From Candidatus Limnocylindrales bacterium (GTDB taxonomy: Bacteria > Chloroflexota > Limnocylindria > Limnocylindrales > CSP1-4): a stretch of 64,000 bases of DNA. Below the pieces are notes generated by a model. It did no database searches and had not been told where the DNA came from. It saw only the letters and a program-made list of their open reading frames with translations. Position 1 is the stretch's first letter, and every line of letters begins with the position of its first letter. The stretch spans positions 41,257 through 105,256 of the forward strand of contig DASYTG010000034.1 of NCBI GenBank assembly GCA_036002525.1. The letters run 5' to 3'. Below, one piece after another: positions 7,587-50,594 of this stretch. Made by a program: the position numbers and the translations under genes.

Positions 7587-8416
7587 CGACGGGCCTCGGG
7601 CCGCCGCGCGACCCAGATCTGCTCGCGGCCGTACACCGGGGGCGAGCCGGCGTAGTCACTGTATTCCGCGATCGGCTCGAAGCCGCCAAGCTCCAGCAGG
7701 TGACGCATCTCGTGGCGGTAAGTCCACCGTAGCTTCAGCTCCTCGAACTCCTCGCGCACAACGCGACCCTTGGGATCGAGCTCGCTGAATCGCCAGCGCT
7801 CGCGCAGGCGCTGGGCGACCGGATCCGTTTGGCGCTCGACCGCGGTGACCCGGACGCGCGTTCCGCCCACCTCGTACTCGCCACGCTCCTCGGAGGGATG
7901 CAGACCAGGCACGCAGCGGTCGAGGAGCGGATCGAAGACGTCCAGCGCGAGCAGGCCGCTGGGTCGGAGGTGGCGGCGGACTGCGGCGAGCGCCGACCGC
8001 TGGGCTGCAACGTCGAGCAGCGACATGAAGACCCGGAAGACGGCGAAGACGAGCCCGAACCGGCGGCCGAGCCGGAAGTCCGTCATATCGCCCTCGACGA
8101 ACCGCAACCGGCGACGCGTCGCCGCTGGCAGTCGAGAACGCTTCGCGGCCGCGACGGCGAGCATCGCCGGCGAGCGGTCCAGCCCGACGACGTCGATCCC
8201 CGCCACGGCGAGGGGGATCGCCACACGTCCGGTGCCGCACCCCAGCTCGAGCACCGGCCCGCCCGCGTCTGCCGCCAGGCGCTCGAAGAAGGCGATGTCG
8301 TCGCCGCCAGGGACCCCCGGGTGCATCACGTCGTAGACCCTGACGTGGAGCCCGTCGCGGCCGTAGAACGGGGTCGTCGCCGGCGTCATCCGCGGAGGAT
8401 GGGGCGGGTGAGGCAC
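7583..8416 (-). CDS. class I SAM-dependent methyltransferase
   Basis: Motif I VLELGCGTGRVAIPLA followed by VVGLDRSPAML. It has a 4-nt overlap with the downstream M20 gene. Confidence 0.85.
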   Translation of the reverse strand: MPHPPHPPRMTPATTPFYGRDGLHVRVYDVMHPGVPGGDDIAFFERLAADAGGPVLELGCGTGRVAIPLAVAGIDVVGLDRSPAMLAVAAAKRSRLPAATRRRLRFVEGDMTDFRLGRRFGLVFAVFRVFMSLLDVAAQRSALAAVRRHLRPSGLLALDVFDPLLDRCVPGLHPSEERGEYEVGGTRVRVTAVERQTDPVAQRLRERWRFSELDPKGRVVREEFEELKLRWTYRHEMRHLLELGGFEPIAEYSDYAGSPPVYGREQIWVARRPEARR

Positions 8417-38311: not shown

Positions 38312-38429
38312 TTGGGCCTCCTGATGTTGATCGCGCACAACACCCGGAGGGACCGGGTGCCGTGACGCGGACGCCCCCGACCGTAGGGCGGCGCCTCCCC
38401 TGCAGGTGCAGCACGCGACCGGAAGGGAG

Positions 38430-38444
38430 TATCAGGTTCATATC
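38430..38444 (+). repeat. candidate att core, left copy (TATCAGGTTCATATC)
   Basis: Matches 49444..49458 (TACCAGGTTCGTATC) at 13 of 15 positions and coincides with the left GC-content break. Confidence 0.45.
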
Positions 38445-38476
38445 GTTCGTGGTTCACGCCCAATTCGTGCGTGACG

Positions 38477-38507
38477 GTTGACATCTACGGTCAACGTCCC
38501 CGATAAG
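38477..38507 (+). promoter_or_regulatory. candidate promoter and operator for the K/A-rich gene and integrase
   Basis: TTGACA (38478-38483), an 18-nt spacer, then GATAAG (38502-38507). The inverted repeat GTTGAC-n7-GTCAAC (38477-38495) overlaps the -35. Confidence 0.35.
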
Positions 38508-38565
38508 TGCGGTCCCGGCGAATTAGAACAAACGTTCTACGCCGTGACAGGACAGGGAGGTCATC

Positions 38566-38949
38566 GTGACCACGCAGGACATCGGGACCGAAACAGCGGA
38601 CAAGGCGACTCGCGTCGCCGATCCCGTCACCGCCAAGTCCCCAGCGGATGGCAAGAAACGCCTCGCTTCGGCCAAGCGACGTGCCGCGCGGACACCGAAG
38701 GCGTCGAAGGCGTCAGTCAAGGCGAAGTCGAGCGCGCCGTCGAAGGCGGAGCGCGTCCGGGCGCTGCTCGATCAGGGCAAGACAGTCAAGGAGATCGCTC
38801 AGGCGCTGGACGACGTGTCGTGGTCCTACGCCTGGGACGTTGCGGCAGCGTGGGAGAAGAAGACAGGCAAGGTCGTCATCGCATCCCACAAGAAGGCGCC
38901 GAAGAAGCGGGCACCGCGCAAGGCGGCACCGAAGGCAGGTGCCAAGTGA
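38566..38949 (+). CDS. Lys/Ala-rich DNA-binding protein (excisionase-like position, histone-H1-like tails)
   Basis: GTG start with SD gggagg. Its stop overlaps the integrase start (GTGA at 38946-38949). Central HTH-like ERVRALLDQGKTVKEIAQALDDVSWSYAWDV is flanked by KRRAARTPKASKASVKAKSS and KKAPKKRAPRKAAPKAGAK. Confidence 0.6.
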   Translation: MTTQDIGTETADKATRVADPVTAKSPADGKKRLASAKRRAARTPKASKASVKAKSSAPSKAERVRALLDQGKTVKEIAQALDDVSWSYAWDVAAAWEKKTGKVVIASHKKAPKKRAPRKAAPKAGAK

Positions 38950-39899
38950 CGCGGTCGCCCCTCGATCGGATCGACCCCTCCTCCCCTATTCGCAAGCACG
39001 CCGCGTGGTACATGCAGTCGCTCCGCTCGTCAGCGCGATCGAAGGCGACCATCGGCGTGTACGTCGGCGCGTTGCGCGAGTTCGATCGGTTCGCGGCAGC
39101 CAACGGGATGCCGCGTGACCTCACCCAGATCGAACGCCAACACGTCGAGGCGTTCATGCTCGACCAGTTGACTCGCCTGAGCCCAGGATCGGCAGCGGCG
39201 AGGTACGGCGGCCTGCGCTCGTTCTTCGCGTGGGCGGTCGAGCAGGGGCAGATCGACTCGTCACCCATCGCCAAGATGCGACCGCCGAAGGTGCCGGAAG
39301 TCCCGGTGCCCGTCCTGACCGACGATCAGGTGCGCGCGCTGCTGCGCGCCTGTGAGGGCAAGGCGTTCAAGCAGCGGCGCGACACGGCGCTCATTCGGTT
39401 CATGCTCGACACGGGCGCGCGTCGGTCGGAGGTGGCGTTCGTTCGCCTGACCGACCTGGACCTGTCAGAGGGCACGGTCGTCATCACCAAGACGAAAGGC
39501 AACCGTCCACGGGTCGTCGCGTTCGGCGCGAAGACGGCGAGCGCGATCTACGCCTACCTCATCGAGCGGGACAAGAACACGCACGCCTCGTCACCCTTCT
39601 TGTGGATCGGTCAGGCAGGCGGGTTGTCAGGTGATGCCGTTGGCGCGATCGTCGCGAGACGTGCTCGCATGGCAGGCATCTACAACCTTGACGCGGATGG
39701 GAGGCAGCGTCCCGTCCACGCGCACCAGACCCGGCACACGTTCGCCGACCGCTACCTCGCTGCTGGCGGGTCCGAAGGGAACCTGATGGCGCTCGGAGGT
39801 TGGAGGTCGGCGGAGATCATGCGCCGCTACGGTCGTGACCGAGCGACAGCACGAGCGATCGATGAGGCGCGACGGATCGCCGTCGGCGATCGCCTATGA
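38946..39899 (+). CDS. int: tyrosine recombinase / integrase (XerC/D-like)
   Basis: N-terminal SAM-like core-binding segment (IGVYVGALREFDRFAA...RYGGLRSFFAWAV). Catalytic signature DTGARRSEV (Arg), HQTRHTFA (H-x-x-R), LGGWRS and EIMRRYG (Tyr). Confidence 0.9.
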   Translation: MTRSPLDRIDPSSPIRKHAAWYMQSLRSSARSKATIGVYVGALREFDRFAAANGMPRDLTQIERQHVEAFMLDQLTRLSPGSAAARYGGLRSFFAWAVEQGQIDSSPIAKMRPPKVPEVPVPVLTDDQVRALLRACEGKAFKQRRDTALIRFMLDTGARRSEVAFVRLTDLDLSEGTVVITKTKGNRPRVVAFGAKTASAIYAYLIERDKNTHASSPFLWIGQAGGLSGDAVGAIVARRARMAGIYNLDADGRQRPVHAHQTRHTFADRYLAAGGSEGNLMALGGWRSAEIMRRYGRDRATARAIDEARRIAVGDRL

Positions 39900-39951
39900 C
39901 ATTCCCACACGACGCGCTCTAAGGCGGCGTCACGACACGCAACGGGTCGAG

Positions 39952-39981
39952 GAGGCGCGAGTGGGCAACCGCTCGCGCCTC
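39952..39981. terminator. hairpin between the convergent integrase and orphan gene
   Basis: GAGGCGCGAG-tgggcaaccg-CTCGCGCCTC, followed by gttcgttgt on the + strand. Confidence 0.45.
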
Positions 39982-40036
39982 GTTCGTTGTCGCCCAGTGT
40001 TCGCGATGTCGACCTGAACAACCCTCGCCGGGCAGG

Positions 40037-41446
40037 TCACGCAGCGCGTTTCCGTGGCCACGCGTTCAGAGCGTCCTCAGGTCGGTGACGTTGGAGCCAC
40101 TTTCTCGCCGCCGCTTCCGAGAACCCACGTCCTCGAAGGCCCGCGAGCAGATCAGCGCGTGCCGATCGGGTGCGATCGAGCCGATCGAGGTATTCCCGCA
40201 TCCGCGGGACGATCTCGCCCGGATCAGCGGCGTATCGGCCATCGACCTTGGTCGCGAACTTCGGCAGCAGTTTGTAGTAGCGCCGCTCGCTGATCCCGAT
40301 GAGGGTCCACGGCTGACGATCGGCGTTCTCCTGTTTGCGGTGCTGCTTGATCGCGATGCTCGCCTTGCGCGTCACGTAGCGTCGGCTCGCCTCCGCGCCG
40401 CGGGCGGGATCAAAACCCGGATGGAGGAGGCCTTCCAGCAGCAGCGCCGCTGCGGCATCCAAGTCAGGCGCTTTCGTCTCGCGGCGGACGCGTCCTACTT
40501 GTCTTGGAAAGGCGAGCGCGACGGCTCTGGCAAGGAGCGGTTCGTCGCTTCCGACGTATCCGTGCCAGTACGCCTTGAGCAGCACCTGGCAGGCAAGCTC
40601 CATCGGCGAGGACGCTTGGTCAACCGTGACGACAGGGATGCCATGTGCGTGGATTGCCTTCGCGAGCATCGGCCACGGGCGATCGGTGCGCTGGTTCACA
40701 CCCTGCGTCCATATGCGAGCACTGAACGCCCAGTCGACCGGTTGACTCGTCAGGCGCGTGACGATCAGGACGCTCTCGGTGGCGAACAGCGGTGGCGCGC
40801 GCCGCGCTTTCATCTCGTCCTTGTCGAAGAGGTGTTCGAAGAGCCGACCCTCGTCCTCGGTCTTGTCCGTCACCCAGATCAGGCGGCGTGAGATCTGAAA
40901 TCCCCATCCGCCGAACTCGAACCCAAGGATGGGTACGATGAACCTGAGGTCCGGGTCCATGACGCGCCGCAGCACAGACTCCATCTCGCCGCCTTCGACG
41001 TTCTCCCGCAGCCACCACCTGATGTAGTCGCTGTCGAGGAGGCCTTCTCCGCGAGCCTTTGCGACGATCTGCCCGGCGTAGAACAGCGCCTCACCGACCG
41101 GCATGGCGCGAGGCGCAAGCGTCACGAGTGGAGTCACCTGAACGACCGTGGTGATGAGGTCGTTCACCGGATCGGGGACCTCGTGTACGGACTGCTCCCC
41201 CTGCATCGTCCCGCGCTGCAGGTCGGGGACGTCAACAAAAGGGAGGCCGTTCGTCTCGAAGCGGACCGTCCTCGTGCCTCGGAAGTCGAAGGTGCGCCCG
41301 GTCAGGATGTCGATCTCCTGCCCCGTCTGGCGCAGCATCTCCTTCACGAGTTCGCGATCAGGGTCGCCCCCGATCTTCGCGATGACCTCGTCCAGCAGAT
41401 TCTCCGACCATTGTCCCAAGCGGGCAGTATAACTGGGTGTGGACAA
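40037..41446 (-). CDS. large orphan protein (about 470 aa; ORF open to 41713), C-terminal HTH-like segments
   Basis: Protein-like composition and GC3-rich codons from about 41420 down to the stop. No ATPase, nuclease or polymerase motif recognised. C-terminal PWTLIGISERRYYKLLPKF and GRGFSEAAARKWLQRH look like HTH elements. The start is uncertain: in-frame TTGs at 41446 and 41419, ATG at 41338. Confidence 0.6.
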   Translation of the reverse strand: MSTPSYTARLGQWSENLLDEVIAKIGGDPDRELVKEMLRQTGQEIDILTGRTFDFRGTRTVRFETNGLPFVDVPDLQRGTMQGEQSVHEVPDPVNDLITTVVQVTPLVTLAPRAMPVGEALFYAGQIVAKARGEGLLDSDYIRWWLRENVEGGEMESVLRRVMDPDLRFIVPILGFEFGGWGFQISRRLIWVTDKTEDEGRLFEHLFDKDEMKARRAPPLFATESVLIVTRLTSQPVDWAFSARIWTQGVNQRTDRPWPMLAKAIHAHGIPVVTVDQASSPMELACQVLLKAYWHGYVGSDEPLLARAVALAFPRQVGRVRRETKAPDLDAAAALLLEGLLHPGFDPARGAEASRRYVTRKASIAIKQHRKQENADRQPWTLIGISERRYYKLLPKFATKVDGRYAADPGEIVPRMREYLDRLDRTRSARADLLAGLRGRGFSEAAARKWLQRHRPEDALNAWPRKRAA

Positions 41447-41828
41447 GGTTCCGTCAGGCTGGGTCAAGCGACGCTCGGGCCTACTGGTGCCAGCAGAGCG
41501 CGGAATGCGTCGCGCTCCTGCGGCAGTCGCACTCCTGCTGGCGATCCTAACGCTGTCGTCTCCAGCAGCAAGTGCCGTCTCCGCATGGTCCCGCGCGGCA
41601 ACGGACGTGGTGACGATGCTGCGACATGTGCTTGGCGGCACTGCACCGAACGCCGACAACCAGTCGTGCGTGCCGCCTCGACTCCCCGCGCACGACGACG
41701 AGCGACCGGTCAAGACGCGTCGCTGACGATCGATCCGACGGGATCACAGGGCCGCGGGTCGTCCCGCCCCTTAGCGACCGTTCTAGAAGGGGTCAGGCGG
41801 GGTCGCGATCAACGCATACTGGGGCGGG

Positions 41829-42317
41829 ATGACGCCTGAGCGCCCGGTCGCACCCAATCCCGACAGCGTCGTCGCTGCCGTTGAAACGTTGCGCGCCGAA
41901 CTCCTGATGGTCGAGCGAGGCCTCGAGAGCATCGATCGCAAGGCCGCACTCCTGCCTCCTGTCTTGGCTGCTGTCGCAGGGTTCCTGACAACGCCCGAAG
42001 GCGGCTACACGCCCTGGCAGCAGGTCCTACTAATCGCTGCGCTCGGCACGTTCACGACGGCGCTAATCCTCGCGATCTGGATATTGGTGTCGGGGCGGCT
42101 GAATGTTGGGCCAAACGCCCAGACGACAGCGAAGGCAACCCACCTTGCTCCCGCAGACTTCAACCGGGCAGTCGCCGGGTCACTCGCCAACGCGGTCGAT
42201 GAACTGTCGGACTGGTCCAAGTGGAAGGGCAGGCGTCTCTACATCGCGATGGGACTTGCCGCCGCGACTATTCTGCTGCTAGCAATGGCGCGAGTCGCCG
42301 GAGGAATTGGTGCCTGA
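41829..42317 (+). CDS. small multi-TM membrane protein (162 aa), first gene of a coupled three-gene cassette
   Basis: N-terminal helix ...LRAELLMVERGLESIDRKAALL, then hydrophobic segments PPVLAAVAGFL, VLLIAALGTFTTALILAIWILV and LYIAMGLAAATILLLAMARV. ATG with ggggcggg upstream. Confidence 0.6.
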   Translation: MTPERPVAPNPDSVVAAVETLRAELLMVERGLESIDRKAALLPPVLAAVAGFLTTPEGGYTPWQQVLLIAALGTFTTALILAIWILVSGRLNVGPNAQTTAKATHLAPADFNRAVAGSLANAVDELSDWSKWKGRRLYIAMGLAAATILLLAMARVAGGIGA

Positions 42318-42507
42318 CGATCAGCAGCAACCGCAATCGCCTCCGAGCGAGGCTCCGGAGACGCCTGCACCGCCCGTCGAACAGCAAGTCGCCCCTCAAC
42401 CTCAACCGCCGCCTCCACCCCTCGACTTCGGGGAACAGATTGCCGAGCGTGGCAACGTCCCTCACGAGATCGAGACGAGGATCATCGAGCGGAGCGGCGA
42501 GCGGTGA
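42310..42507 (+). CDS. Pro/Gln-rich small protein (65 aa)
   Basis: GTG at 42310 lies 4 nt after GGAGGA and overlaps the end of the upstream gene. Sequence PDDQQQPQSPPSEAPETPAPPVEQQVAPQPQPPPPPLDFGEQIAERGNVPHEIETRIIERSGER. Low complexity makes the coding status uncertain. Confidence 0.4.
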   Translation: MPDDQQQPQSPPSEAPETPAPPVEQQVAPQPQPPPPPLDFGEQIAERGNVPHEIETRIIERSGER

Positions 42508-42749
42508 CAGACACGAGGCGGTACTCGGCAACGTGGATCGTCACGATGGACGTTGAGGAGCCGCCGGGCAAGGATCGGCAGGAGCGCGGCCAAGACGAGT
42601 CGGCGCTGATGCTCAGCATGCACTTGTTCCTCGCCAGTCAAGGCATCGACCAAGCGCTGCAGGACCACTTGAAGGCGTGGGCAGGCGACCGCGAGATCGA
42701 ACACGTCCATGTCATGGCGCTCTCCGCAAAGCACCCTGACAACGAGTGA
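42504..42749 (+). CDS. small acidic protein (81 aa)
   Basis: Its start overlaps the upstream stop (GTGA). MTDTRRYSATWIVTMDVEEPPGKDRQERGQDESALMLSMHLFLASQGIDQALQDHLKAWAGDREIEHVHVMALSAKHPDNE. No family recognised. Confidence 0.5.
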   Translation: MTDTRRYSATWIVTMDVEEPPGKDRQERGQDESALMLSMHLFLASQGIDQALQDHLKAWAGDREIEHVHVMALSAKHPDNE

Positions 42750-42768
42750 TCGAGGCGTAGGCGGAGAC

Positions 42769-42816
42769 GGGCAGGACGCGCGATCAGCCCCACTGGTGAT
42801 CCGACACGTCCTGCCC
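42769..42816. terminator. compound stem-loop between the convergent cassette and lipoprotein gene
   Basis: GGGCAGGACG ... CGTCCTGCCC (10-bp outer stem) encloses the inner stem GATCA..TGATC. Confidence 0.45.
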
Positions 42817-42919
42817 GGGAGGAGGGAGCGAGCGCAGTGGCCCCGTGAACAACCCCTGCGCCCACGACACGATCATCGGCGAGCGCCGCAACCGGCAAAC
42901 GAGGGTCCGATCCTCACTC

Positions 42920-43258
42920 CTAGGAGGAGGACGCCGGAATGGTTTGTGGTGCAGTGATCGCCCACGTCTGGTCCGCGCACAGCCCCTGCATCTCGGCGAT
43001 GACCCGGCCACGCTGCGTCGCCACGAGCGTTCCCGGCAGGCATCCGGAACGAGCGAATGCTTGGAAGGGGGCAATTGCGAGAGCCGTCTGGCCGGATGAC
43101 AGTTCCATCTCCCACGGAGCCGTCGCGCCGCCAGCACTGCGATAACTGACGACGACCTCTTCGGACGTGTCGTTCCTCACCGATCCGACGGGGCCGTGGT
43201 CCTCTCTTAGGCCGCAGCCCGCGACAGTCACCGAGAGCAGGACGCAGATCGCTCCCAT
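42920..43258 (-). CDS. small lipoprotein (112 aa)
   Basis: MGAICVLLSVTVAGCGLRED... is a signal peptide plus lipobox (VAGC). Start at the ATG at 43258. The upstream part of the listed 202-aa ORF is Arg/Pro-rich. Confidence 0.6.
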   Translation of the reverse strand: MGAICVLLSVTVAGCGLREDHGPVGSVRNDTSEEVVVSYRSAGGATAPWEMELSSGQTALAIAPFQAFARSGCLPGTLVATQRGRVIAEMQGLCADQTWAITAPQTIPASSS

Positions 43259-43387
43259 AGCGGCATGTCTCCGAGGCGACCAACGTAGACCACGGCGCGG
43301 TTCAAGCTTCACGGGGACGATGATCCTCCGAGCGGATGCCCGTTCCCAGTGACTCCTTCGTACCAGTATCGGGACTGGCAGGAGGTT

Positions 43388-43446
43388 GGGAGCGCGAGGG
43401 TTCGTCCCCACTACCAGCAGGGGCAGGCAGCAGGCCTCGCGCTCCC
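43388..43446. terminator. 12-bp perfect inverted repeat (GGGAGCGCGAGG / CCTCGCGCTCCC) with a 35-nt loop
   Basis: Read directly from the sequence. It lies between the end of the replication-type operon (43494) and the lipoprotein start (43258), so it may be a terminator, attenuator or protein-binding site. Confidence 0.3.
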
Positions 43447-43493
43447 GTTGCCCGCTCGCGTGCTGGGCGAAGCGACAGCACACAGGGGCGGTG

Positions 43494-43667
43494 TCATTCC
43501 GTGGCGGCGACCTCCTCCTCAGCCTCAAGTTCCGGGTCCTCGTCGGGCGCCGGCCGCTCCCTCGGGAGCAACGCCTGAGCGTCCTCGAACGTCTTAGGTG
43601 TCTCGCCTCGGAGGATTTCGATCGTCCGCTCCCCGGTCGTCGTTGCCTGGGTGACGCGCTGACTCAT
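43494..43667 (-). CDS. small acidic protein (57 aa)
   Basis: Own translation: MSQRVTQATTTGERTIEILRGETPKTFEDAQALLPRERPAPDEDPELEAEEEVAATE. The ATG overlaps the upstream stop (ATGA at 43664-43667). It is below the ORF-track length cut-off. Confidence 0.4.
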   Translation of the reverse strand: MSQRVTQATTTGERTIEILRGETPKTFEDAQALLPRERPAPDEDPELEAEEEVAATE

Positions 43668-44548
43668 TCGGCACCGCCTTGCTGCGCCGCTGCGCGCTGC
43701 TCCTGCATGAAGTTCCGCATCTTCAAGTTCGCCGACGTTGCCGCCTGCTCGGCGGTGGTGCCGACCTTCTGAGTCAGGCGCTCGGAGTAGATGTCGTTCC
43801 GCAGCAGGTCCCGCTGCAGGACGATCTCGTCCATCTGCTCCCTCGCCTGCCTGCGGTGAGGCACGGATCGATCGAGCGCCTCCGTCAGGGCGTTGTCGAG
43901 GCGACCATCGGTCACCCCGGCACGCCTCGCCGCCTCGACGTACACCCGCGCTCGATCCGGCGCGTTCGACGCGATCAGGCGCCTCGCCTCCGACAGCAGG
44001 CGGTTGCGGATCATCGCCTGCGGCTGCCCAATGAGCGGCGCGGCGAGCCCCGTGATAGCCAGCTCGTCGGCAACGCGGCGTGACTCGGTGGCGGCGTCAC
44101 CGACGGGATCGCTGTCGTACAGCGCCTGAGCGAGCGCCCAGTTCGCCTCGACCCACTCCTCCATCGCGGCGAACGCCTGCTCCTCGGTCATCCGCCACTC
44201 GTGCAGCAGGTTTGACCGCTTCTTGTTGTACTCCTCGGCCCGAACGCCGTAGGTCTGGTCGGCGTCGAGCGGCGGGAACTGACGGAGGCGTTCCGCCACT
44301 TCCCGCAGCCGCGCGATCGCCCGCTTCCTGATCTGCTCTGCCTTCTGCTTCGCCTCGGTGGTCATGCGCTCGTACTCCTTCTGCATTCGGGCGCCCTTGC
44401 GGGCGTCTCGCTCCTGTGCCAACTGCTGCTGGATCGCGGCTCGACGTTCAAGCGATGCCGCTGGAATGCCCCACGCCCCATCTCGTTCGATTTGGAGCAG
44501 GAGGATGCGGTGATCGATCGCCGCCAGACGATCGGCGTGCTTGCCCAT
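43664..44548 (-). CDS. all-helical orphan protein (294 aa)
   Basis: Charged, coiled-coil-like composition (QQQLAQERDARKGARMQKEYERMTTEAKQKAEQIRKRAIARLREVAERL...). It is translationally coupled to the endonuclease VII gene (shared position 44548). Confidence 0.65.
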   Translation of the reverse strand: MGKHADRLAAIDHRILLLQIERDGAWGIPAASLERRAAIQQQLAQERDARKGARMQKEYERMTTEAKQKAEQIRKRAIARLREVAERLRQFPPLDADQTYGVRAEEYNKKRSNLLHEWRMTEEQAFAAMEEWVEANWALAQALYDSDPVGDAATESRRVADELAITGLAAPLIGQPQAMIRNRLLSEARRLIASNAPDRARVYVEAARRAGVTDGRLDNALTEALDRSVPHRRQAREQMDEIVLQRDLLRNDIYSERLTQKVGTTAEQAATSANLKMRNFMQEQRAAAQQGGAE

Positions 44549-45105
44549 CAGACCTCGACCTCGAATGCTTCGAGGTAGGCGGCGAGTCGCCGCAGCACCT
44601 CAAGTGAGTCATGGACCCGCGCCAGCGTCGTGTTGCACGTCGCGCACAGGAGTCCTCTGATGCACTTCCCGCACGAGCGTTCGCCCGGGCAGCACTTGTG
44701 GTCGTGATCGACAGACAGGCGCGTGCGCTTCCCCCGCCGCAGCGACTCACGTTTCCCACAACCCGCGCATCGCCCGCCCTGCATGTTGAGGAGCAAGTCG
44801 TACTCGTCAGGGGTGAGGGAGTACCTCCTCAGCGAAGCGCGCTTATCGACCAGCTGCCCTTCGGGTGTTGCGCGGTACCGACGCGACAGCGCGAGGTCTT
44901 GCACCTTGCGCGCCCTGCCTCGGTCCAGTTCACATGGACGGCAGTAACCGCCAACGTACCCGGATCGATACACGTGCCTCGGGCGCGCCTGGCACCGCGG
45001 GCACGTCCTGAGAGATGAGGCCTCATCAGCCTCGCCTGTGACCCGGCTAGAAAGGTCGCTCTCGGGCGCGACGACGATTTCCGGGTCAAGACACCTGACC
45101 ATCAT
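44548..45105 (-). CDS. recombination endonuclease VII family protein with N-terminal zinc ribbon
   Basis: YSLTPDEYDLLLNMQGGRCAGCG...LSVDHDHKCC...IRGLLCATCNTTL is a typical Endonuclease_7 signature. N-terminal CPRCQ...CRPCE. Confidence 0.85.
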   Translation of the reverse strand: MMVRCLDPEIVVAPESDLSSRVTGEADEASSLRTCPRCQARPRHVYRSGYVGGYCRPCELDRGRARKVQDLALSRRYRATPEGQLVDKRASLRRYSLTPDEYDLLLNMQGGRCAGCGKRESLRRGKRTRLSVDHDHKCCPGERSCGKCIRGLLCATCNTTLARVHDSLEVLRRLAAYLEAFEVEV

Positions 45106-45153
45106 GGCGTCACGTCCTTTGACCGTCGCTCTGCGTCAATAGACCTCGATCGT

Positions 45154-45450
45154 TCATTCGCCCTCCTCCTGTGGCGGCTGTGGGAACCAGATCGCCCGAC
45201 AAGCGGCATACACGCCAACCACCATGTCCCCGTGGCGATTGACGTTCGGCGGTTTGCTGTGGGCGATCGCCTCCGACACCGCGGGATCGAGGTTCGGCAC
45301 CTGCCCAAGGAGCGTGTTGAACCACGCGTCGAAGACCTGCCCGACCGGGACATACCGCTCTTCGCCGTTGTCGATCCGGCGGAAGGTCACGTACTTGGGC
45401 GACACCCGCATCTCCGCCTTGGCGATGCGCGCCGCGAGTGAACTGGTCAT
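45154..45450 (-). CDS. hypothetical protein (98 aa)
   Basis: Normal composition (RVSPKYVTFRRIDNGEERYVPVGQVFDAWFNTLLGQ...) and the same strand as the operon. Confidence 0.5.
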   Translation of the reverse strand: MTSSLAARIAKAEMRVSPKYVTFRRIDNGEERYVPVGQVFDAWFNTLLGQVPNLDPAVSEAIAHSKPPNVNRHGDMVVGVYAACRAIWFPQPPQEEGE

Positions 45451-45549
45451 CGAGCCTAAGCACCGGCAGACCGGGGACCGGGACCCAGAAATGCCAGTGC
45501 CACCCCGCAGCGGCCTCGAGGTCGTCGTACAGGGGGTGGGGTGGGGTGC

Positions 45550-46002
45550 TTACTCATCGTCGTACTGCGGTGGCGGCGTCGAGTCGTCAGGATCGTGCAG
45601 GAGGGCGTCGATCCGACGCTGACGCTCCTCCATCTCGCCGGTCATCAACACCCGCACCGCAGCGGTTGCCAGTGAGGCGAGCGCAGACGCGCGAGTGGGC
45701 GACAAGGCGCCCGACTGGACATCAGCCATCGCCTTGACCACGTCATCGAACACTGAGCGAAGGCGTGGTGGCATCAACCTCTGGACACGACTGACCGTGC
45801 TTGACGAGCGCCCAGCGAGGACACGTGTCTTCGCCTTGGCGTCGGCAGTGATGTTCGGATCGTGGAAGTAGCAGAACCCGCTTCGACCAGCGAACGCACC
45901 GCACCGAACACCGTCCTTCTTGATCCCCTTGCAGCGGGGGTTGCCGGTCGGTGTCAGGTCGTCGTCCTTGACCACACGCAGTGCTGCTTGCCGTCTCGTC
46001 AC
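45550..46002 (-). CDS. hypothetical protein with Cys/His cluster (150 aa)
   Basis: NPRCKGIKKDGVRCGAFAGRSGFCYFHD is a putative zinc-binding N-terminus, followed by a helical C-terminus. GTG start with SD aaggagg. Confidence 0.6.
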   Translation of the reverse strand: MTRRQAALRVVKDDDLTPTGNPRCKGIKKDGVRCGAFAGRSGFCYFHDPNITADAKAKTRVLAGRSSSTVSRVQRLMPPRLRSVFDDVVKAMADVQSGALSPTRASALASLATAAVRVLMTGEMEERQRRIDALLHDPDDSTPPPQYDDE

Positions 46003-46023
46003 GAGTGCCTCCTTATCTCTCGG

Positions 46024-46147
46024 TTATCGGTCGGTTTAGGTGGTCGAGGCGGTCGATTGCACGTTCGCGCCTGCTGGCTTGCCCGCCTTCGATCGCGCCC
46101 ACTTATGCGGTCGGTCACCGTTTGCCATCAGCACTCCCGACCGCTAA
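46024..46147. repeat. iteron-like repeats TTA(T)(G)CGGTCGG (two direct, one inverted, plus degenerate copies); candidate replication origin or operator
   Basis: TTATCGGTCGGT at 46024-46035, GCGGTCGAT at 46049-46057, TTATGCGGTCGGT at 46103-46115, and inverted CCCGACCGCTAA at 46136-46147. They lie in the 223-bp non-coding gap immediately downstream of the primase-helicase gene. Confidence 0.45.
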
Positions 46148-46225
46148 ACGTTTCCTGAGAGCGACCCGCCGCTACCGTCAGCAGTGACGGCGCCAACGAG
46201 GCCATTGCGGCATCGGTCAGCGGCG

Positions 46226-48148
46226 TCACCGAGGCCTCCGTGGCGTCGTCTTCGCTGCCTTCGCCTTCGCTCGCGCGTGGGCATCCGCGTCGGTCGACGG
46301 TTGACGACGAGACACGCGTATACGGTGTCTCTCGTCAACCACGACGCTGGATGCGGGTTCTGGTTGAGGAGTGGCGTCAACCGAGTCGTCAACTGAGTCG
46401 TCAACCGACCATGTCTTGCGCTCGGATGCAGGTCCACTGCGACGTTCGACAGCGCCGATAGCGCGGAGGTCAGCGAGTGCGGTGTCCTTGCCGATGGCGA
46501 GCATCGAGGTGATCTCCGCCATCGTTCGCGGTCCCGCAGCGAGCAGCACCTTCATGTCCTGCCGTCGCTTGACCATCCGGTCGTTGCTCTTGCCGTAGGA
46601 GATGCGTGGCGCGCCAGCGTTGAGGTACAGCCCGCCCTCGCGGATCAGGACCACGGGATCGGCGGCGCCTTCATACCGCGAGATGATCTGGCACGACCGT
46701 GCCATGTCGTCCTCAGGGACGCGGGTGACCTCGACCATCGTCTCGACCTGGGCCAAGAACTCGGTCGTGCCTCGGTAGGTGCCGCTCCTGTTCGTCTGGT
46801 GAACGACGATGCAGGCGATGCCCCGCGGGATGACCGCCGACCGAACAATGTCCAGCGCGCGGCCTACCTCGGACGCATCGCCCTCGTTCTCGATGCCCGC
46901 CCACGCCCGCAGCGTGTCGATGAGCACCGGTCGCCCCTCGCGCTCGGCAACGCGGGCCGCCTTCATGACGACCTCGGCGAACGTCAAGCCCGGGTTCTGG
47001 GCGCGGGTCAGCAACCGGAAGTCGGTCATCGAGTAACGCCGGATCTTCTCGCCGAGGGTGTCGTACCCCTCCTCGGACACCATCACTGGACCCGGCATGT
47101 GTCTGGCGTTCAATCCGGCAAAGAGCGTCCCGTTGAGGCAGGCCGCGAACAGCCCGAACGCGAGCGACGACTTGCCGTCCTTCGGTCCGCCGACGATGAG
47201 GAGGACTGCGCCACGGTGGAACCACCCATCGATCAGCGGGTCAGGTGGATGGTCAAGGAGGTCGGCGACCATCGCGGGGGCGAGGAACAGCGAGTCGTCG
47301 CTGTCGGGATCGGGCACCGTCCAAGGCCTGCCCGAGCGTTGCACGTCGCGCCAGTCCTTCTCGCCCAGCAACGGGTTGGTAGGTGGGCGGATCGTGGCGA
47401 CCATCAGGCCCGCCTCAATGATCGAGGTCGTTTGTTCCGAATCCGCCTTGCTGCCAGACGAGTCGAGGTCGAAGGCAAGGACAATCGCCTCGACGCCGCG
47501 ATCCCGGAGAGCGCCGATCTCTGTAGGGGTCAGGACCCGGCCCGCCCCTTTCGTGATCGCGTAGGCCTTGACGCCCTGCGAGCGCAGCACGATGCAGTCG
47601 GTTTCGCCCTCGGTCAGCGTCAGCGTCTTCGGGTATCGCTTGCGGAGCGGCCAGATCGGCGGCGTTGACAGTCCTGCCGGTTCCCACGCGAGGCCGTCCT
47701 TCTTCGGCGCCCCCATGACCCGCGTCTTTGCCGGGAGGTCGTCGCCGAACAGGAACGCGACCTTGCCGTCGCGGGCCTCCACCGGCAGCGCATCGATGAC
47801 CGAGCGATCGACGCCGCAGTAGGCGGCGAGCTCGTCCAGCGGATCCTTCTTCGATCGCCGCCTTACCCGTGGGAGCGCTGTCGTGGGCGACACGTCGCTC
47901 GTGCCAATCGGGACGTGGGCGCTGCCGTTCCGCAGGGCGTTGACTGCGTCGAGCATTTCCTGCTGCGAGCAACCTGACCAGCACTTGCCGATGACCCGCG
48001 TTCTGCCAATGGCAACGTCGAGCGACGGGTGTTCGTCACCGTGGGATGGGCAGGTCGCCGTGAACTTCGAGGCGCCGTGCCACTCGACCGGCGCGAGCGC
48101 CTTTGCCCAGTCGCGGAGTTCGGCGCGGAGGCTGTCGGTCGTGGTCAT
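46226..48148 (-). CDS. bifunctional primase-helicase (DnaG-type zinc finger + Toprim + RecA/DnaB-like ATPase; T7 gp4-like layout)
   Basis: CPSHGDEHPSLDV...KCWSGC (CHC2-like zinc finger). Toprim LTEGETDCIV and AFDLDSSG. Walker A LLIVGGPKDGKSSLA, Walker B-like RPVLIDTLRAW, IVVHQTNRSG. C-terminal wHTH-like MAEITSMLAIGKDTALADLRAIG. Confidence 0.85.
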   Translation of the reverse strand: MTTTDSLRAELRDWAKALAPVEWHGASKFTATCPSHGDEHPSLDVAIGRTRVIGKCWSGCSQQEMLDAVNALRNGSAHVPIGTSDVSPTTALPRVRRRSKKDPLDELAAYCGVDRSVIDALPVEARDGKVAFLFGDDLPAKTRVMGAPKKDGLAWEPAGLSTPPIWPLRKRYPKTLTLTEGETDCIVLRSQGVKAYAITKGAGRVLTPTEIGALRDRGVEAIVLAFDLDSSGSKADSEQTTSIIEAGLMVATIRPPTNPLLGEKDWRDVQRSGRPWTVPDPDSDDSLFLAPAMVADLLDHPPDPLIDGWFHRGAVLLIVGGPKDGKSSLAFGLFAACLNGTLFAGLNARHMPGPVMVSEEGYDTLGEKIRRYSMTDFRLLTRAQNPGLTFAEVVMKAARVAEREGRPVLIDTLRAWAGIENEGDASEVGRALDIVRSAVIPRGIACIVVHQTNRSGTYRGTTEFLAQVETMVEVTRVPEDDMARSCQIISRYEGAADPVVLIREGGLYLNAGAPRISYGKSNDRMVKRRQDMKVLLAAGPRTMAEITSMLAIGKDTALADLRAIGAVERRSGPASERKTWSVDDSVDDSVDATPQPEPASSVVVDERHRIRVSRRQPSTDADAHARAKAKAAKTTPRRPR

Positions 48149-48284
48149 CGCGCCTGCCTGCCATTGACAACGCCGCGATGCCCTGCGCGATGATCGCAGG
48201 CCATTTGCCCGTTAGCGAGGAACAAAGTGGACAGGACAATCGGTGCGCGGGACCCTCTGGCGTGGCTCACGGATTGGGTAGGTG

Positions 48285-48611
48285 TCACGACGGCACGTCC
48301 CCGATCCAATACCCCTGCTCCTCGTCGTGGACGACAGCAAACGATCGTTGAGCACATGAACATCCCGCGCGTTCCGTCAGTAACTGACCAAGCAGCAACC
48401 TCACCGCGACCATCACGCACTCGTCGGCGCTGAGGCCCATTGACGACTCGCGGAGGGCGACGAACAGCCCGAGGGCAACGTCAGGGGCGAAGTGCTGCTT
48501 GACCTCCTCGGAGGTGACCGACGAGTGCGCGCAGGCAAGCGTCCATTCGCCGTGATTGCCCGCCTCGGGCCGATCGATCCACTCCGTCCACGCCACGGTG
48601 GGGGTCGTCAT
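48285..48611 (-). CDS. hypothetical protein (108 aa)
   Basis: The ATG overlaps the upstream stop (ATGA at 48608-48611). No family recognised. Confidence 0.5.
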   Translation of the reverse strand: MTTPTVAWTEWIDRPEAGNHGEWTLACAHSSVTSEEVKQHFAPDVALGLFVALRESSMGLSADECVMVAVRLLLGQLLTERAGCSCAQRSFAVVHDEEQGYWIGDVPS

Positions 48612-48886
48612 TCCGACCGCCTCTTTGCCGCGGACCTTTCCGCCATCCTTCTGTAGTGACCGCGCCGCAGGCGCTCGGCAGTCTTGCGCCTCACGTCGTC
48701 AGGCAGCGTGGGATCGATCTCCGTCCAGGGGCAGACCTTGCACGAGTGCCCCTGCAGGAACGACTCGCGGAACCGCCGCTGGGCCTCATCGAAGATGCCC
48801 TCGGGCGCGATCGGATGCAGCTCCCAGCGGCGCCGCCCGCCTTCCTTGCCCGCGCGCGAGAGGTGGGCGAGGCGTTCGGGGGTCAC
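48608..48886 (-). CDS. hypothetical basic protein (92 aa)
   Basis: Coupled at both ends by 4-nt overlaps. RLAHLSRAGKEGGRRRWE ... HSCKVCPW. Confidence 0.55.
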   Translation of the reverse strand: MTPERLAHLSRAGKEGGRRRWELHPIAPEGIFDEAQRRFRESFLQGHSCKVCPWTEIDPTLPDDVRRKTAERLRRGHYRRMAERSAAKRRSE

Positions 48887-49125
48887 GAGTCGCCGCCGTA
48901 CAGGTCGAGGAGGCGGGTGACCAGCGCCTCACTTGGGTTGCCGTTGCCCCGCTCACATTCTGAGAGCCAGAACTGACTGATCCCAGCGAGGCGAGCGGCA
49001 TCGACCTGCCGCATTCCTGCACCAATGCGCGCGAGCAGCAAGGACCGCGCGCCGGGTGGGCGAGCACGTAGTTCGTTCGTGCCCCGCGAGCGCGGGCCTA
49101 GGACTCGACCCCGAGAAAGCGACAT
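48883..49125 (-). CDS. XRE-family helix-turn-helix transcriptional regulator
   Basis: LLLARIGAGMRQVDAARLAGISQFWLSECERGNGNPSEALVTRLLDLY is a typical HTH_3 pattern. It is the first gene of the minus-strand operon. Confidence 0.7.
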   Translation of the reverse strand: MSLSRGRVLGPRSRGTNELRARPPGARSLLLARIGAGMRQVDAARLAGISQFWLSECERGNGNPSEALVTRLLDLYGGDS

Positions 49126-49157
49126 TCGGCGGCGACCTCGAAAGGTCCCGCCGAATG
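49123..49157. promoter_or_regulatory. 15-bp-stem palindrome/hairpin with UUCG loop covering the XRE start codon
   Basis: Plus strand reads CATTCGGCGGCGACCT-CGAA-AGGTCCCGCCGAATG. On the mRNA strand this is CAUUCGGCGGGACCU-UUCG-AGGUCGCCGCCGAAUG (one bulged G). The AUG at 49125-49123 forms the 3' end of the stem. Confidence 0.5.
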
Positions 49158-49369
49158 CATGCTCGGGTCAGATCAGCAGGTCATTGCCTATGCATCGTGC
49201 TCGAACCTTGGGACTCGCCCAAGGGGCCTGCCGGTCGGTTTTCAGTTGCGGCGACGATCGTACACGCAGTAGATGGGGCTATTGCAACCGTCGTCGTGGC
49301 GACCTTATCAACGGCGTCAAGAAAACGAGGTGGAACAAACTTCCGCCGCGCGAACCGACCTGATAAGTC

Positions 49370-49431
49370 CTGACTACTACGTTCAGGCCCGCGCCGAGAA
49401 ATCAGGTTCAACGGCGAATCTGACTACTACG
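49370..49431 (+). repeat. 12-bp direct repeat CTGACTACTACG (49370-49381 and 49420-49431), each followed by an AYCAGGTTC motif
   Basis: Read directly. ATCAGGTTCA at 49401-49410 is identical to 38431-38440. These are candidate integrase arm or accessory sites at the right junction. Confidence 0.45.
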
Positions 49432-49442
49432 CACTCCCTCCC

Positions 49443-50594
49443 CTACCAGGTTCGTATCACGTGATCGGCGAGGCGGCGGGCTTCGTCCGCACGGCCCAGG
49501 GTGAACTCCTGGAACCGGCCCCAGGCCTCGGCGATCCGGCGCGGCTGACGGCTGAACTTGCGCTCGAACCAGTCCGCCCTGTCGGGCCGATCCAGCTCGT
49601 CGGCCCACCAGGCGGTCAGCGGCCCGAACCTCAGCGCGAGGGTCGCCACGTAGCCGAACCGTGCGTCGGCCTCGTCGCCTCGCCAGCCCGCTTCGTGCAG
49701 CCCGGCGAGGTAGCCACGGAGCACGTGCTCTTCGAGGGCAACGGCCTCGGTCGGATCGACCAGGAGCTGCCACAGTGTCGCCCCGACGATGCCGGCGGCG
49801 TCCTCCCCCATCGCACCCAGTCCCGCCAGAGCCCAGTCGAGGACGACGTACGAGTCCCGCCCTGCCTGACCACCCCGAACGAGCACGTTCACCGGGGTCA
49901 CGTCGCGATGAACAAACGTCTGGGGCAGGCCGTCGAGCGCGGCCAGCATTCGTCCTCGATTCGCGGCCAGGCGAGCAAGCGCCTGCGAGCTCGGGGTGGC
50001 GGCGACGGCAAGTGGGCCATGGATTGTCGCGGCACCAGGACCTTCCAGCAACTCCGCGCCGAGCCCTACCCATGAGCGCAGTCCGCCCGCGCCGAGGCCC
50101 TCGACGTCGGGGACAGGGCGGCCCTCGAGATACGCGCCGTTGAACGCGCCGACGCGCCTGGCCACATCCTCGAATCGTTCGAGCGACCAGGGACCGCGCA
50201 CTGCGTCCGCGATCTCCTCGAGACAGAGCCAGAGCGAACCATCGGGACGCTCGACGACGCCGCCGAAGCGCGGCGCCGATAGCTTGCCGGGCAGGTCGTC
50301 TAGCGCGCCTGACGCGTATGCATTGATCTCGCGCTTCCAGAAGTCCCATGCGACCGGATCGGTGGCCGTTGCGTCGGATGCCGGCGGGGCAAAGGTCTTC
50401 GCGACCAACGACCAGCTCACCAACCGACTGTCCGACGTGCGCGCGGTACCGCGGATCCGATGCAGCTCGGCATCCATGATGTTGAGCCAGCCGAGCGCGT
50501 CCCGACTCGCGTCGGTAACCTCCGCCGTGGCATCGCCCAGGAGGCGGCGGACGACCGGTGTCAGCTCAGCGAGATCGACCGCCTCGTCGGCCAC
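49443..50594 (-). CDS. aminoglycoside/choline-kinase-like phosphotransferase (APH family)
   Basis: Brenner motif FVHRDVTPVNVLV and YVVLDWALAG (metal-binding Asp). Confidence 0.85.
   Translation of the reverse strand: MADEAVDLAELTPVVRRLLGDATAEVTDASRDALGWLNIMDAELHRIRGTARTSDSRLVSWSLVAKTFAPPASDATATDPVAWDFWKREINAYASGALDDLPGKLSAPRFGGVVERPDGSLWLCLEEIADAVRGPWSLERFEDVARRVGAFNGAYLEGRPVPDVEGLGAGGLRSWVGLGAELLEGPGAATIHGPLAVAATPSSQALARLAANRGRMLAALDGLPQTFVHRDVTPVNVLVRGGQAGRDSYVVLDWALAGLGAMGEDAAGIVGATLWQLLVDPTEAVALEEHVLRGYLAGLHEAGWRGDEADARFGYVATLALRFGPLTAWWADELDRPDRADWFERKFSRQPRRIAEAWGRFQEFTLGRADEARRLADHVIRTW
49444..49458 (+). repeat. candidate att core, right copy (TACCAGGTTCGTATC)
   Basis: Overlaps the stop and last codons (..HVIRTW*) of the APH-family gene and coincides with the right GC-content break. 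Confidence 0.45.

Follow-up and report, generated by a model that had tools for sequence, protein, structure and literature searches.

In this work we describe two overlapping genes, ORF1 and ORF2 (ORF, open reading frame), which are carried by an integrated element of a Candidatus Limnocylindrales bacterium and lie within 64,000 nt of contig DASYTG010000034.1; this whole stretch of DNA is what was analyzed and is referred to here as the window. Comparison with other loci indicates that ORF1 and ORF2 are a self-contained mobile module, separate from ORF3, the third gene of the same chain. We propose, as a reading that we consider evenly balanced between right and wrong, that the pair is a cyclase-independent membrane-pore effector, gated by ORF2, that would serve abortive infection, superinfection exclusion, or addiction to the element. 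The coordinates of the features are collected in Table 1.

We note that the three ORFs are chained by overlaps between stop and start codons, as an earlier note on this DNA (hereafter the original prediction) had claimed: ORF1 and ORF2 overlap by 8 nt and ORF2 and ORF3 by 4 nt (GTGA). The GC content at the third codon position (GC3) is 0.71, 0.69, and 0.83 in ORF1, ORF2, and ORF3, respectively, and that at the second position (GC2) is 0.52, 0.49, and 0.39, in a genome of 72% GC. This codon-position profile, together with conservation elsewhere, establishes that ORF1, ORF2, and ORF3 are all genuine genes. The protein features listed in the original prediction were likewise recovered. The approximately three hydrophobic segments of ORF1 correspond to three peaks with centers near residues 47, 78, and 148; ORF2 is Pro/Gln-rich (16 Pro and 9 Gln) and acidic (isoelectric point (pI) 4.2); and ORF3 is acidic (pI 5.0). 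The statement that the trio lies on the strand opposite to the rest of the element holds for most genes but not for the integrase gene, which is also on the plus strand.

Profile comparisons identify ORF1 as a divergent, three-transmembrane (TM) protein of the pJV1-SpdB3/PycTM family. The assignment rests on the homologs of ORF1, because the window protein alone lies below all hidden Markov model (HMM) thresholds (its precomputed Pfam mark reads “PycTM (faint)”). We found 38 homologs in a set of 5.8 billion proteins and, at E ≤ 1e-3, 155 cluster representatives of the family among 1.8 billion proteins; a second protein-database search with a profile of distant members gained little. The PycTM models used were Pfam PF18967 and PADLOC PDLC02363-5. 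The PADLOC PycTM HMMs matched 34 of the 38 close homologs (best E 1.9e-7) and 30 of 41 distant ones (best E 9.2e-12), and precomputed PF18967 matches at E ≤ 1e-5 exist for P0002, P0012, and P0016, which are homologs 49-63% identical to ORF1. Further, hhalign of a 72-sequence ORF1-family profile against a profile of five Streptomyces SpdB3 proteins gave a probability of 93.2% and an E value of 2.8e-7 over 137 collinear columns, which cover the full length of the proteins (ORF1 residues 19-159 against SpdB3 residues 4-145). A D-x-K motif before TM1 and a Gly-Gly after TM3 are common to the ORF1 family and SpdB3. Some family members also matched the PADLOC “2TM Effector” models weakly (best E 2.4e-5), and a search of NCBIfam with family members returned nothing meaningful. 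The original prediction had recognized none of the three products, which does not hold for ORF1, as profile methods identify its family; its remark that the layout of ORF1 resembles that of TM effectors of abortive infection turns out to reflect a distant but real homology (PycTM models and SpdB3 profile).

The AlphaFold2 (AF2) model of ORF1 (pLDDT 89 and pTM 0.75) has helices at residues 11-54, 62-86, 97-105, and 108-157. The first and the last of these are long and extend into TM1 and TM3, respectively, the second is TM2, and the third is short; together they give three TM segments and a helical cytosolic bundle. The model agrees with the protomer of EcPucTM as described in a preprint from the Patel, Aravind, and Nobrega groups (10.64898/2026.08.12.744502, 2026), the comparison being one by description. 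In this preprint, the effectors are named “pJV1-spdB3 family 3TM” proteins, and EcPucTM is reported to be a hexameric cylinder in which each protomer contributes three TM helices and the channel measures ~15 angstroms. A PDB sequence search with the ORF1 family profile gave no match, and no solved relative of ORF1 was found in the PDB copy searched. Foldseek of the ORF1 model against PDB and BFVD, one of the checks that the original prediction had suggested, returned generic helical-bundle matches only (all E > 0.08). In one locus (L003 8400-8470), the ORF1 homolog is frameshifted before TM3 (“LLALARIAGGI” is in another frame), and of the ORF2 tail just a fragment follows. Either decay of this copy or a misassembly is the probable cause.

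We next consider ORF2, which the comparison of loci indicates to be an obligate partner of ORF1, either as a separate gene or as part of a fusion. ORF2 lies directly 3′ of ORF1 in the window and in L001, L002, L004, L005, L011, and L013-L017, and wherever a locus extends beyond the 3′ end of ORF1, an HMM of the C-terminal motif of ORF2 found a match there (E 1e-16 to 1e-6; weak in L020). The family consensus of this tail is P-x-[ND]-F-G-Q-Q-I-x2-K-G-G-x-P-x2-h-E-x2-I-x2-I-E-K-x-G. In P0005, P0011, P0029, P0038, and many cluster representatives, the two are fused, with an ORF1-like part followed by an in-frame stretch rich in Pro, Gln, Ser, and Thr and then by an ORF2-type tail. The junction between the two genes is also conserved. 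In the window, the codons for the terminal Gly-Gly of ORF1 double as the Shine-Dalgarno sequence of ORF2, and in most loci, including L014 and L015, where the genes are fused in frame, GGAGG is followed 5-8 nt on by ATG or GTG (L020 has GGAG only). Most junctions are split, with an ATGA or GTGA overlap; the fused forms differ by 1 nt in frame and retain the arrangement of Shine-Dalgarno sequence and start codon. This conserved junction argues for translational coupling of ORF2 to ORF1, and in the fused genes initiation might additionally occur internally at the ORF2 start. AF2 modeled a fused relative with a disordered linker, and its confidence in the tail was low. Single-sequence searches of Pfam, PADLOC, and PHROG with ORF2 and with ORF3 were blank. 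We also observed a second, weaker, Pro-rich ORF2-like ORF after the first ORF2 homolog in L001 (8648-8845) and L002 (743-940) (tblastn E 2.5e-6; tail HMM E only 0.02), which could have arisen by duplication of the partner gene in tandem.

The properties of ORF2 would also suit an addiction module, in which ORF1 is a membrane toxin that is neutralized by a labile, acidic ORF2 and thereby stabilizes the element. ORF2 is small, acidic, disordered, translationally coupled, and always present, a member of the ORF1 family is toxic on expression, and the module resides on mobile elements beside recombinase genes. However, the toxin would be first in the gene order, and ORF1-ORF2 fusions, which are common, would be unusual for a toxin with a labile antitoxin. 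We regard this explanation on its own as unlikely, although the data do not separate it from defense and the two are not mutually exclusive.

The sequence upstream of ORF1 provides further evidence that the pair is autonomous. A −10-like hexamer 6-8 nt before the ORF1 start was present at 10 of 12 distinct loci (TANNNT at seven and CATACT at three, including the window), which corresponds to a binomial P of ~1e-14 against the background frequency, with the start codons having been chosen partly by eye. In leaderless transcripts, a spacing of 6-8 nt from the −10 hexamer to the start codon is expected. Thus, ORF1-ORF2 carries its own putative promoter of the leaderless type, which marks it as an autonomous cassette. 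Further, an upstream stretch (41773-41808; TAGAAGGGGTCAGGCGG, then GCATACT) is common to the window and L001 (~7965-7990), and GCATACT is also found in L003, despite an identity of just 55-63% among the ORF1 proteins of these three loci. The promoter region seems to travel with the ORF1-ORF2 cassette. A 13-nt inverted repeat (GTCGTCCCGCCCC / GGGGCGGGATGAC, 41758-41833) that could form a hairpin hiding the ORF1 start was rejected as a regulator, because its z-score was only −1.7 and its 5′ arm is probably upstream of the leaderless transcription start.

By contrast with ORF2, ORF3 does not accompany ORF1 elsewhere. The original prediction had treated the trio as one cassette and had suggested that its co-occurrence be checked in other genomes. 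We found that ORF1 and ORF2 are always together, and that ORF3 is never with them outside this element, being absent from the other ORF1 loci (L001-L008 and L011-L020). ORF3 has only two homologs in the set of 5.8 billion proteins, both of 81 aa and 74% and 77% identical to it, and both are in related elements (L021 and L022) that lack ORF1, ORF2, and the gene for the 460-aa protein p460; in both, another small gene stands before ORF3. The DNA of L021 and L022 is homologous to the window from the ORF3 start codon onward and through the terminator. Over the 81 codons, the three elements align without gaps and third-position changes dominate, which supports the GTG start and indicates that ORF3 is under purifying selection. 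A PDB search with ORF3 gave no match. The alignments thus mark ORF3 as part of the backbone of the element family; it is co-transcribed with the ORF1-ORF2 module here but does not belong to it, and it closes the operon of the variable slot. The compound hairpin that the original prediction had placed behind the cassette (42769-42816) does fold, at nearly the same coordinates (Table 1), and its sequence is conserved in L021 and L022. A simple terminator scan found nothing at this hairpin, as it has no T-run; it is probably a bidirectional terminator without a U-tract. The small convergent lipoprotein gene beyond it is also as described previously. The gene that precedes ORF3 in L021 (7904-8227) and L022 (1071-1433) encodes a conserved protein of 107 or 120 aa with one hydrophobic helix, the tail of which (EGNVRRIIEDKIKIERK) is loosely like the end of ORF2 (RGNVPHEIETRIIERSGER). 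The idea that ORF3 recognizes the tail of the product of the preceding gene (the L021 107-aa protein versus ORF2) was dropped, as the motif HMM gave an E value of ~5-10.

The module occupies a slot that varies within a family of elements. In the window, the GC content falls from ~72% to ~65-66% between ~38 and 50 kb. The window is matched at 100% identity by two independent metagenome contigs: L010 (Logan) corresponds to 38410-46342, and L009 (JGI, 11,261 bp) spans exactly the interval given in Table 1, which suggests an element of ~11.3 kb. We found no direct (attachment-site) repeat of >15 bp and no tRNA gene at the ends of this interval. One related element, L021, has an integrase 47% identical and a p294 (294-aa protein) 83% identical to those of the window and different genes in the slot; a shorter contig, L022, has ORF3 and the terminator in common with it. 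Together, L021 and L022 have the integrase, ORF3, terminator, and p294 of the window but other slot genes. This comparison of three related elements indicates that the slot between the integrase gene and ORF3 is variable and here holds p460 and ORF1-ORF2 as independent occupants, in agreement with the accessory slot postulated by the original prediction. For p460, there was no Pfam, PADLOC, PHROG, or PDB match, and neither the other ORF1 loci nor L021 encode it. Other occupants of the slot, encoded at 6259-7725 in L021 (488 aa) and at 2-997 in L022, contain R-x4-H motifs (RSDIVH and RNSFVH) like those of HEPN active sites; neither protein has a Pfam or PADLOC match.

Related elements also carry an SU10-type capsid gene (L004 and L005; 2101-3087 in L004) or a Terminase_6N domain (L021, 10448-11206), and these capsid- or terminase-bearing relatives are small integrative elements with AAA_25 primase-helicases. 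The element family thus looks phage-satellite-like, and its gene content suggests that its members are satellites of uncultured high-GC bacteria that form capsids or exploit a helper. A tblastn search with the primase-helicase of the element found no match in the phage and plasmid reference collections. This setting raises a further explanation, in which the pair acts in holin-like lysis and egress of a phage satellite, with ORF1 timing release by a membrane lesion and ORF2 acting like an antiholin. A small, multi-TM protein of a pore-forming family in a phage-related integrative element would fit, as would the capsid gene or terminase domain of the relatives, and a small regulator coupled to a pore protein may be compared with a holin/antiholin pair. 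However, none of the three ORFs has a PHROG match and ORF1 matches no holin family, no lysin domain was found in any neighborhood examined, and no endolysin adjoins the pair at any of these loci. The pair is situated in the variable, integrase-proximal slot and is missing from the close relative L021. Further, no relative of ORF1 was found in IMG/VR (2.9 million viral contigs) or, by tblastn, in the phage (50,697 genomes) and plasmid reference collections. We therefore consider a role in lysis very unlikely.

We next consider the partners that members of this family have elsewhere. PycTM HMMs match across the family and canonical PycTM effectors are activated by cyclic mononucleotides (cNMPs), so ORF1 could be an orphan Pycsar/Pucsar effector that is still opened by a cNMP, the responsible cyclase being supplied by another part of the genome or by an incoming element. 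However, no nucleotide cyclase (Guanylate_cyc) was found in the element, in L001-L008, or in L011-L019 (~20 neighborhoods), or in the flanks of the window among the best 25 of 32 Pfam families, whereas canonical systems have an adjacent cyclase. This subfamily instead always carries ORF2, and the AF2 model of ORF1 does not have the β-rich cNMP-binding appendage. We regard this explanation as highly improbable.

A second possibility is Spd-like transfer, in which ORF1 and the small “Spd” proteins ORF2 and ORF3 would form a membrane complex that carries element DNA from one cell or hyphal compartment to another. The family takes its name from spdB3 of pJV1, the alignment of ORF1 with Streptomyces SpdB3 is full-length, and the genome is of high GC content. 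Further, spd operons have overlapping stops and starts; in pSVH1, spdB3 is needed for intramycelial spreading and is followed by the small gene spd79 (PMC4447253). The window locus resembles an spd-type operon in its overlapping small genes (8 and 4 nt) and in its SpdB3 homolog (hhalign) but has no TraB. The genes of the element include no FtsK_SpoIIIE/TraB protein (the only P-loop protein is the Toprim + AAA_25 primase-helicase), and no FtsK/TraB-like translocase, GntR-type TraR, or NUDIX protein was found in the element or adjoining the other family members, whereas the Streptomyces loci have them. The ORF2 motif is absent, by motif HMM, from the Streptomyces spd loci (and from L021 and L022), and the pair is also found in a Chloroflexi metagenome-assembled genome, the only locus with ORF1 relatives among the 185,579 species genomes of GTDB. 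In addition, the capsid protein and terminase of related elements point to phage-mediated transfer and not to conjugation. Thus, Spd-like transfer appears quite unlikely.

The genes that do adjoin ORF1-ORF2 elsewhere bear out the accessory setting of the original prediction, as they include recombinases, restriction-modification genes, and a PADLOC candidate system. A PvuII endonuclease, a methylase, and a serine recombinase are near the pair in L017, a serine recombinase in L016, and a methylase, a ResIII helicase, and a NERD protein in L001. PDC-M30A, a PADLOC candidate system, is present in L011 and an AbiE pair in one of the loci L011-L019, and in L007 and L008 the pair directly follows an integrase gene. 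The absence of a cyclase or TraB from the loci, the defense and recombinase neighbors, the high toxicity of SpdB3 when expressed in Escherichia coli (PMC4447253), and the reported action of PycTM on the membrane (PMC11224242) therefore lead us to the pore-effector reading. By analogy with the SpdB3/PycTM family, ORF1 would oligomerize in the cytoplasmic membrane to form a channel or pore and would be a membrane-permeabilizing effector that works without a cyclase. ORF2, a disordered, acidic, Pro/Gln-rich chain that ends in the motif of ~29 residues, would be made by translational coupling from the Shine-Dalgarno sequence in the Gly-Gly codons of ORF1 and would control the opening of ORF1. That ORF1 forms a pore, that ORF2 regulates it, and that the pair serves defense are inferences.

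Several points weigh against this proposal. First, SpdB3, the founder of the family, has a non-defense role in plasmid spread, so the homology supports readings other than defense. Second, ORF1 alone gave no Pfam match at E ≤ 10, no PADLOC match at E ≤ 1, and no significant HMM match. Third, PADLOC, another check that the original prediction had suggested, detects no defense system at this locus. Fourth, the neighborhood evidence is anecdotal, drawn from about a dozen loci, and does not amount to a statistical enrichment. Fifth, the AF2 model of the fused relative does not dock the tail on the TM domain with confidence. Finally, three TM segments and an inside N terminus should place the C terminus of ORF1 outside the cell, whereas split ORF2 has no signal peptide; either the tail is in different compartments in fused and split forms, or the topology is not as modeled.

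A bolder version of the pore-effector reading, which we advance only tentatively and rather doubt, is that the pair is a new anti-phage or exclusion system without a cyclase, in which an SpdB3/PycTM-type hexameric pore is held shut or triggered by ORF2. Here the 29-residue tail would be a plug or an infection sensor, and the promoter-bearing cassette would spread among satellite-like elements of high-GC soil bacteria. If so, a protein ligand can take the place of a cyclic nucleotide in gating the SpdB3/PycTM pore family, and the plasmid-spread (Spd) and immune (Pycsar) branches of this family would be linked. The effector fold and the family are already known; what is new is an architecture that lacks cyclase and TraB, a partner that is obligate and bears the tail, whether as its own gene or as a fusion, a cassette with its own promoter, and an uncharacterized element family with a variable slot. 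PycTM-type proteins are known in two settings, as suicide effectors triggered by cyclic nucleotides and as SpdB3 in plasmid spread, and this subfamily has the partner of neither. If the module is autonomous, it would offer a minimal two-component system for studying gating in the pore family and a cyclase-free membrane-effector architecture of the kind missed by defense finders that require a cyclase. The integrase-proximal slot of the ~11-kb element family could also be mined for more cargo. If ORF1-ORF2 is only an addiction or lysis gene, it would represent an ordinary accessory function of a mobile element.

Table 1. Features of the element and of the ORF1-ORF2 locus (window positions)
Feature	Position	Strand	Details
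Integrated element	38313-49573		~11.3 kb; basis: lower GC, L009 ends
Tyrosine integrase gene	39012-39899	+	Element left end; Pfam Phage_integrase, E 3e-24
p460 gene	40037-41419	-	460-aa protein; second independent slot occupant between integrase gene and ORF3
73-aa ORF	41505-41726	+	Signal-peptide-like N terminus (MRRAPAAVALLLAILTLSSPAASA); just upstream of ORF1; gene call in L009
−10-like hexamer CATACT	41815-41820	+	Putative leaderless promoter; 8 nt upstream of ORF1 ATG
ORF1	41829-42317	+	162 aa; ATG start; stop TGA 42315-42317
GGAGGA	42300-42305	+	ORF1 terminal Gly-Gly codons (end of TM3); ORF2 Shine-Dalgarno
ORF2	42310-42507	+	65 aa from GTG, or 66 aa from TTG at 42307
ORF2 C-terminal motif	42418-42504	+	Conserved, 29 residues (PLDFGEQIAERGNVPHEIETRIIERSGER); motif HMM
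ORF3	42504-42749	+	81 aa; GTG start
Compound GC-rich hairpin	42768-42817	.	Between convergent genes; 11-bp outer stem + inner stem
Convergent lipoprotein gene	42920-43258	-	Lipobox LSVTVAGC

The other genes of the element encode, besides the lipoprotein, p294 (for which a PDB sequence search gave no match), an endonuclease VII, a DUF5763 protein, the Toprim + AAA_25 primase-helicase, and small helix-turn-helix proteins. The flanks consist of ordinary chromosomal genes, including those for PBP1, histidine kinases, PDH E1, CorA, and topoisomerase IB. No tRNA genes were found, and there was no Rfam match. The 73-aa ORF just upstream of ORF1 has a weak coding signature (GC3 of 0.69, below the first-position value of 0.73), and its status is uncertain.

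Among known systems, PycTM/PucTM of Pycsar/Pucsar are the same family as ORF1 at the profile level, of similar size, with three TM segments and a helical cytosolic part, and like ORF1-ORF2 they are found among defense and mobile genes. They differ in that ORF1 has neither an adjacent cyclase nor, in its model, the cNMP-binding appendage, in that it is always accompanied by the Pro/Gln-rich partner with the conserved C-terminal motif, and in that the window ORF1 itself scores below every HMM threshold. The effectors of the CBASS 2TM type (CBASS, cyclic oligonucleotide-based antiphage signaling system) and of the SLATT type follow the same logic of a small, membrane-disrupting effector, and a few family members match the “2TM Effector” models; these matches are much weaker and rarer than those to PycTM, and ORF1 has no CD-NTase or SMODS partner.

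SpdB3 of pJV1 and pSVH1 shares with ORF1 the full-length, collinear profile match and the Gly-Gly end after TM3, and it is likewise encoded in operons of small genes with overlapping stops and starts, without a cyclase, and in a high-GC setting. Unlike spd operons, this element has no TraB/FtsK, TraR, or NUDIX gene, and spd operons have no ORF2 motif; unlike spd plasmids, the element is integrative and has a primase-helicase, and its relatives carry capsid or terminase genes and not conjugation genes. We found spdB3 relatives on 34 plasmids, 33 from Streptomyces and one from Kitasatospora; those inspected are among transfer-type genes, and the inspected Streptomyces loci carry FtsK-like or AAA genes. 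The spdB3 gene of pJV1 (L023, NC_001759; region 145-2221) is annotated “Pycsar system effector family protein” by the Prokaryotic Genome Annotation Pipeline (PGAP). No Pycsar cyclase adjoins SpdB3 in the five loci inspected (L023-L027), and the automatic Pycsar name for these plasmid spdB3 loci is misleading. The same PGAP name is found on 32 of the 34 listed plasmids (H5 is unannotated).

Finally, the accessory slots of P4-like and PICI (phage-inducible chromosomal island) satellites and of prophages are hotspots of defense genes, and Rousset et al. and Fillol-Salom et al. are said to have described such hotspots of phage satellites and prophages in 2022. The present element family differs from these in being uncharacterized and in matching nothing in the phage and plasmid references, and none of its slot occupants is a validated defense gene. 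Its layout is nevertheless the same, with variable genes between a conserved integrase gene and the backbone and with occupants that differ among relatives.

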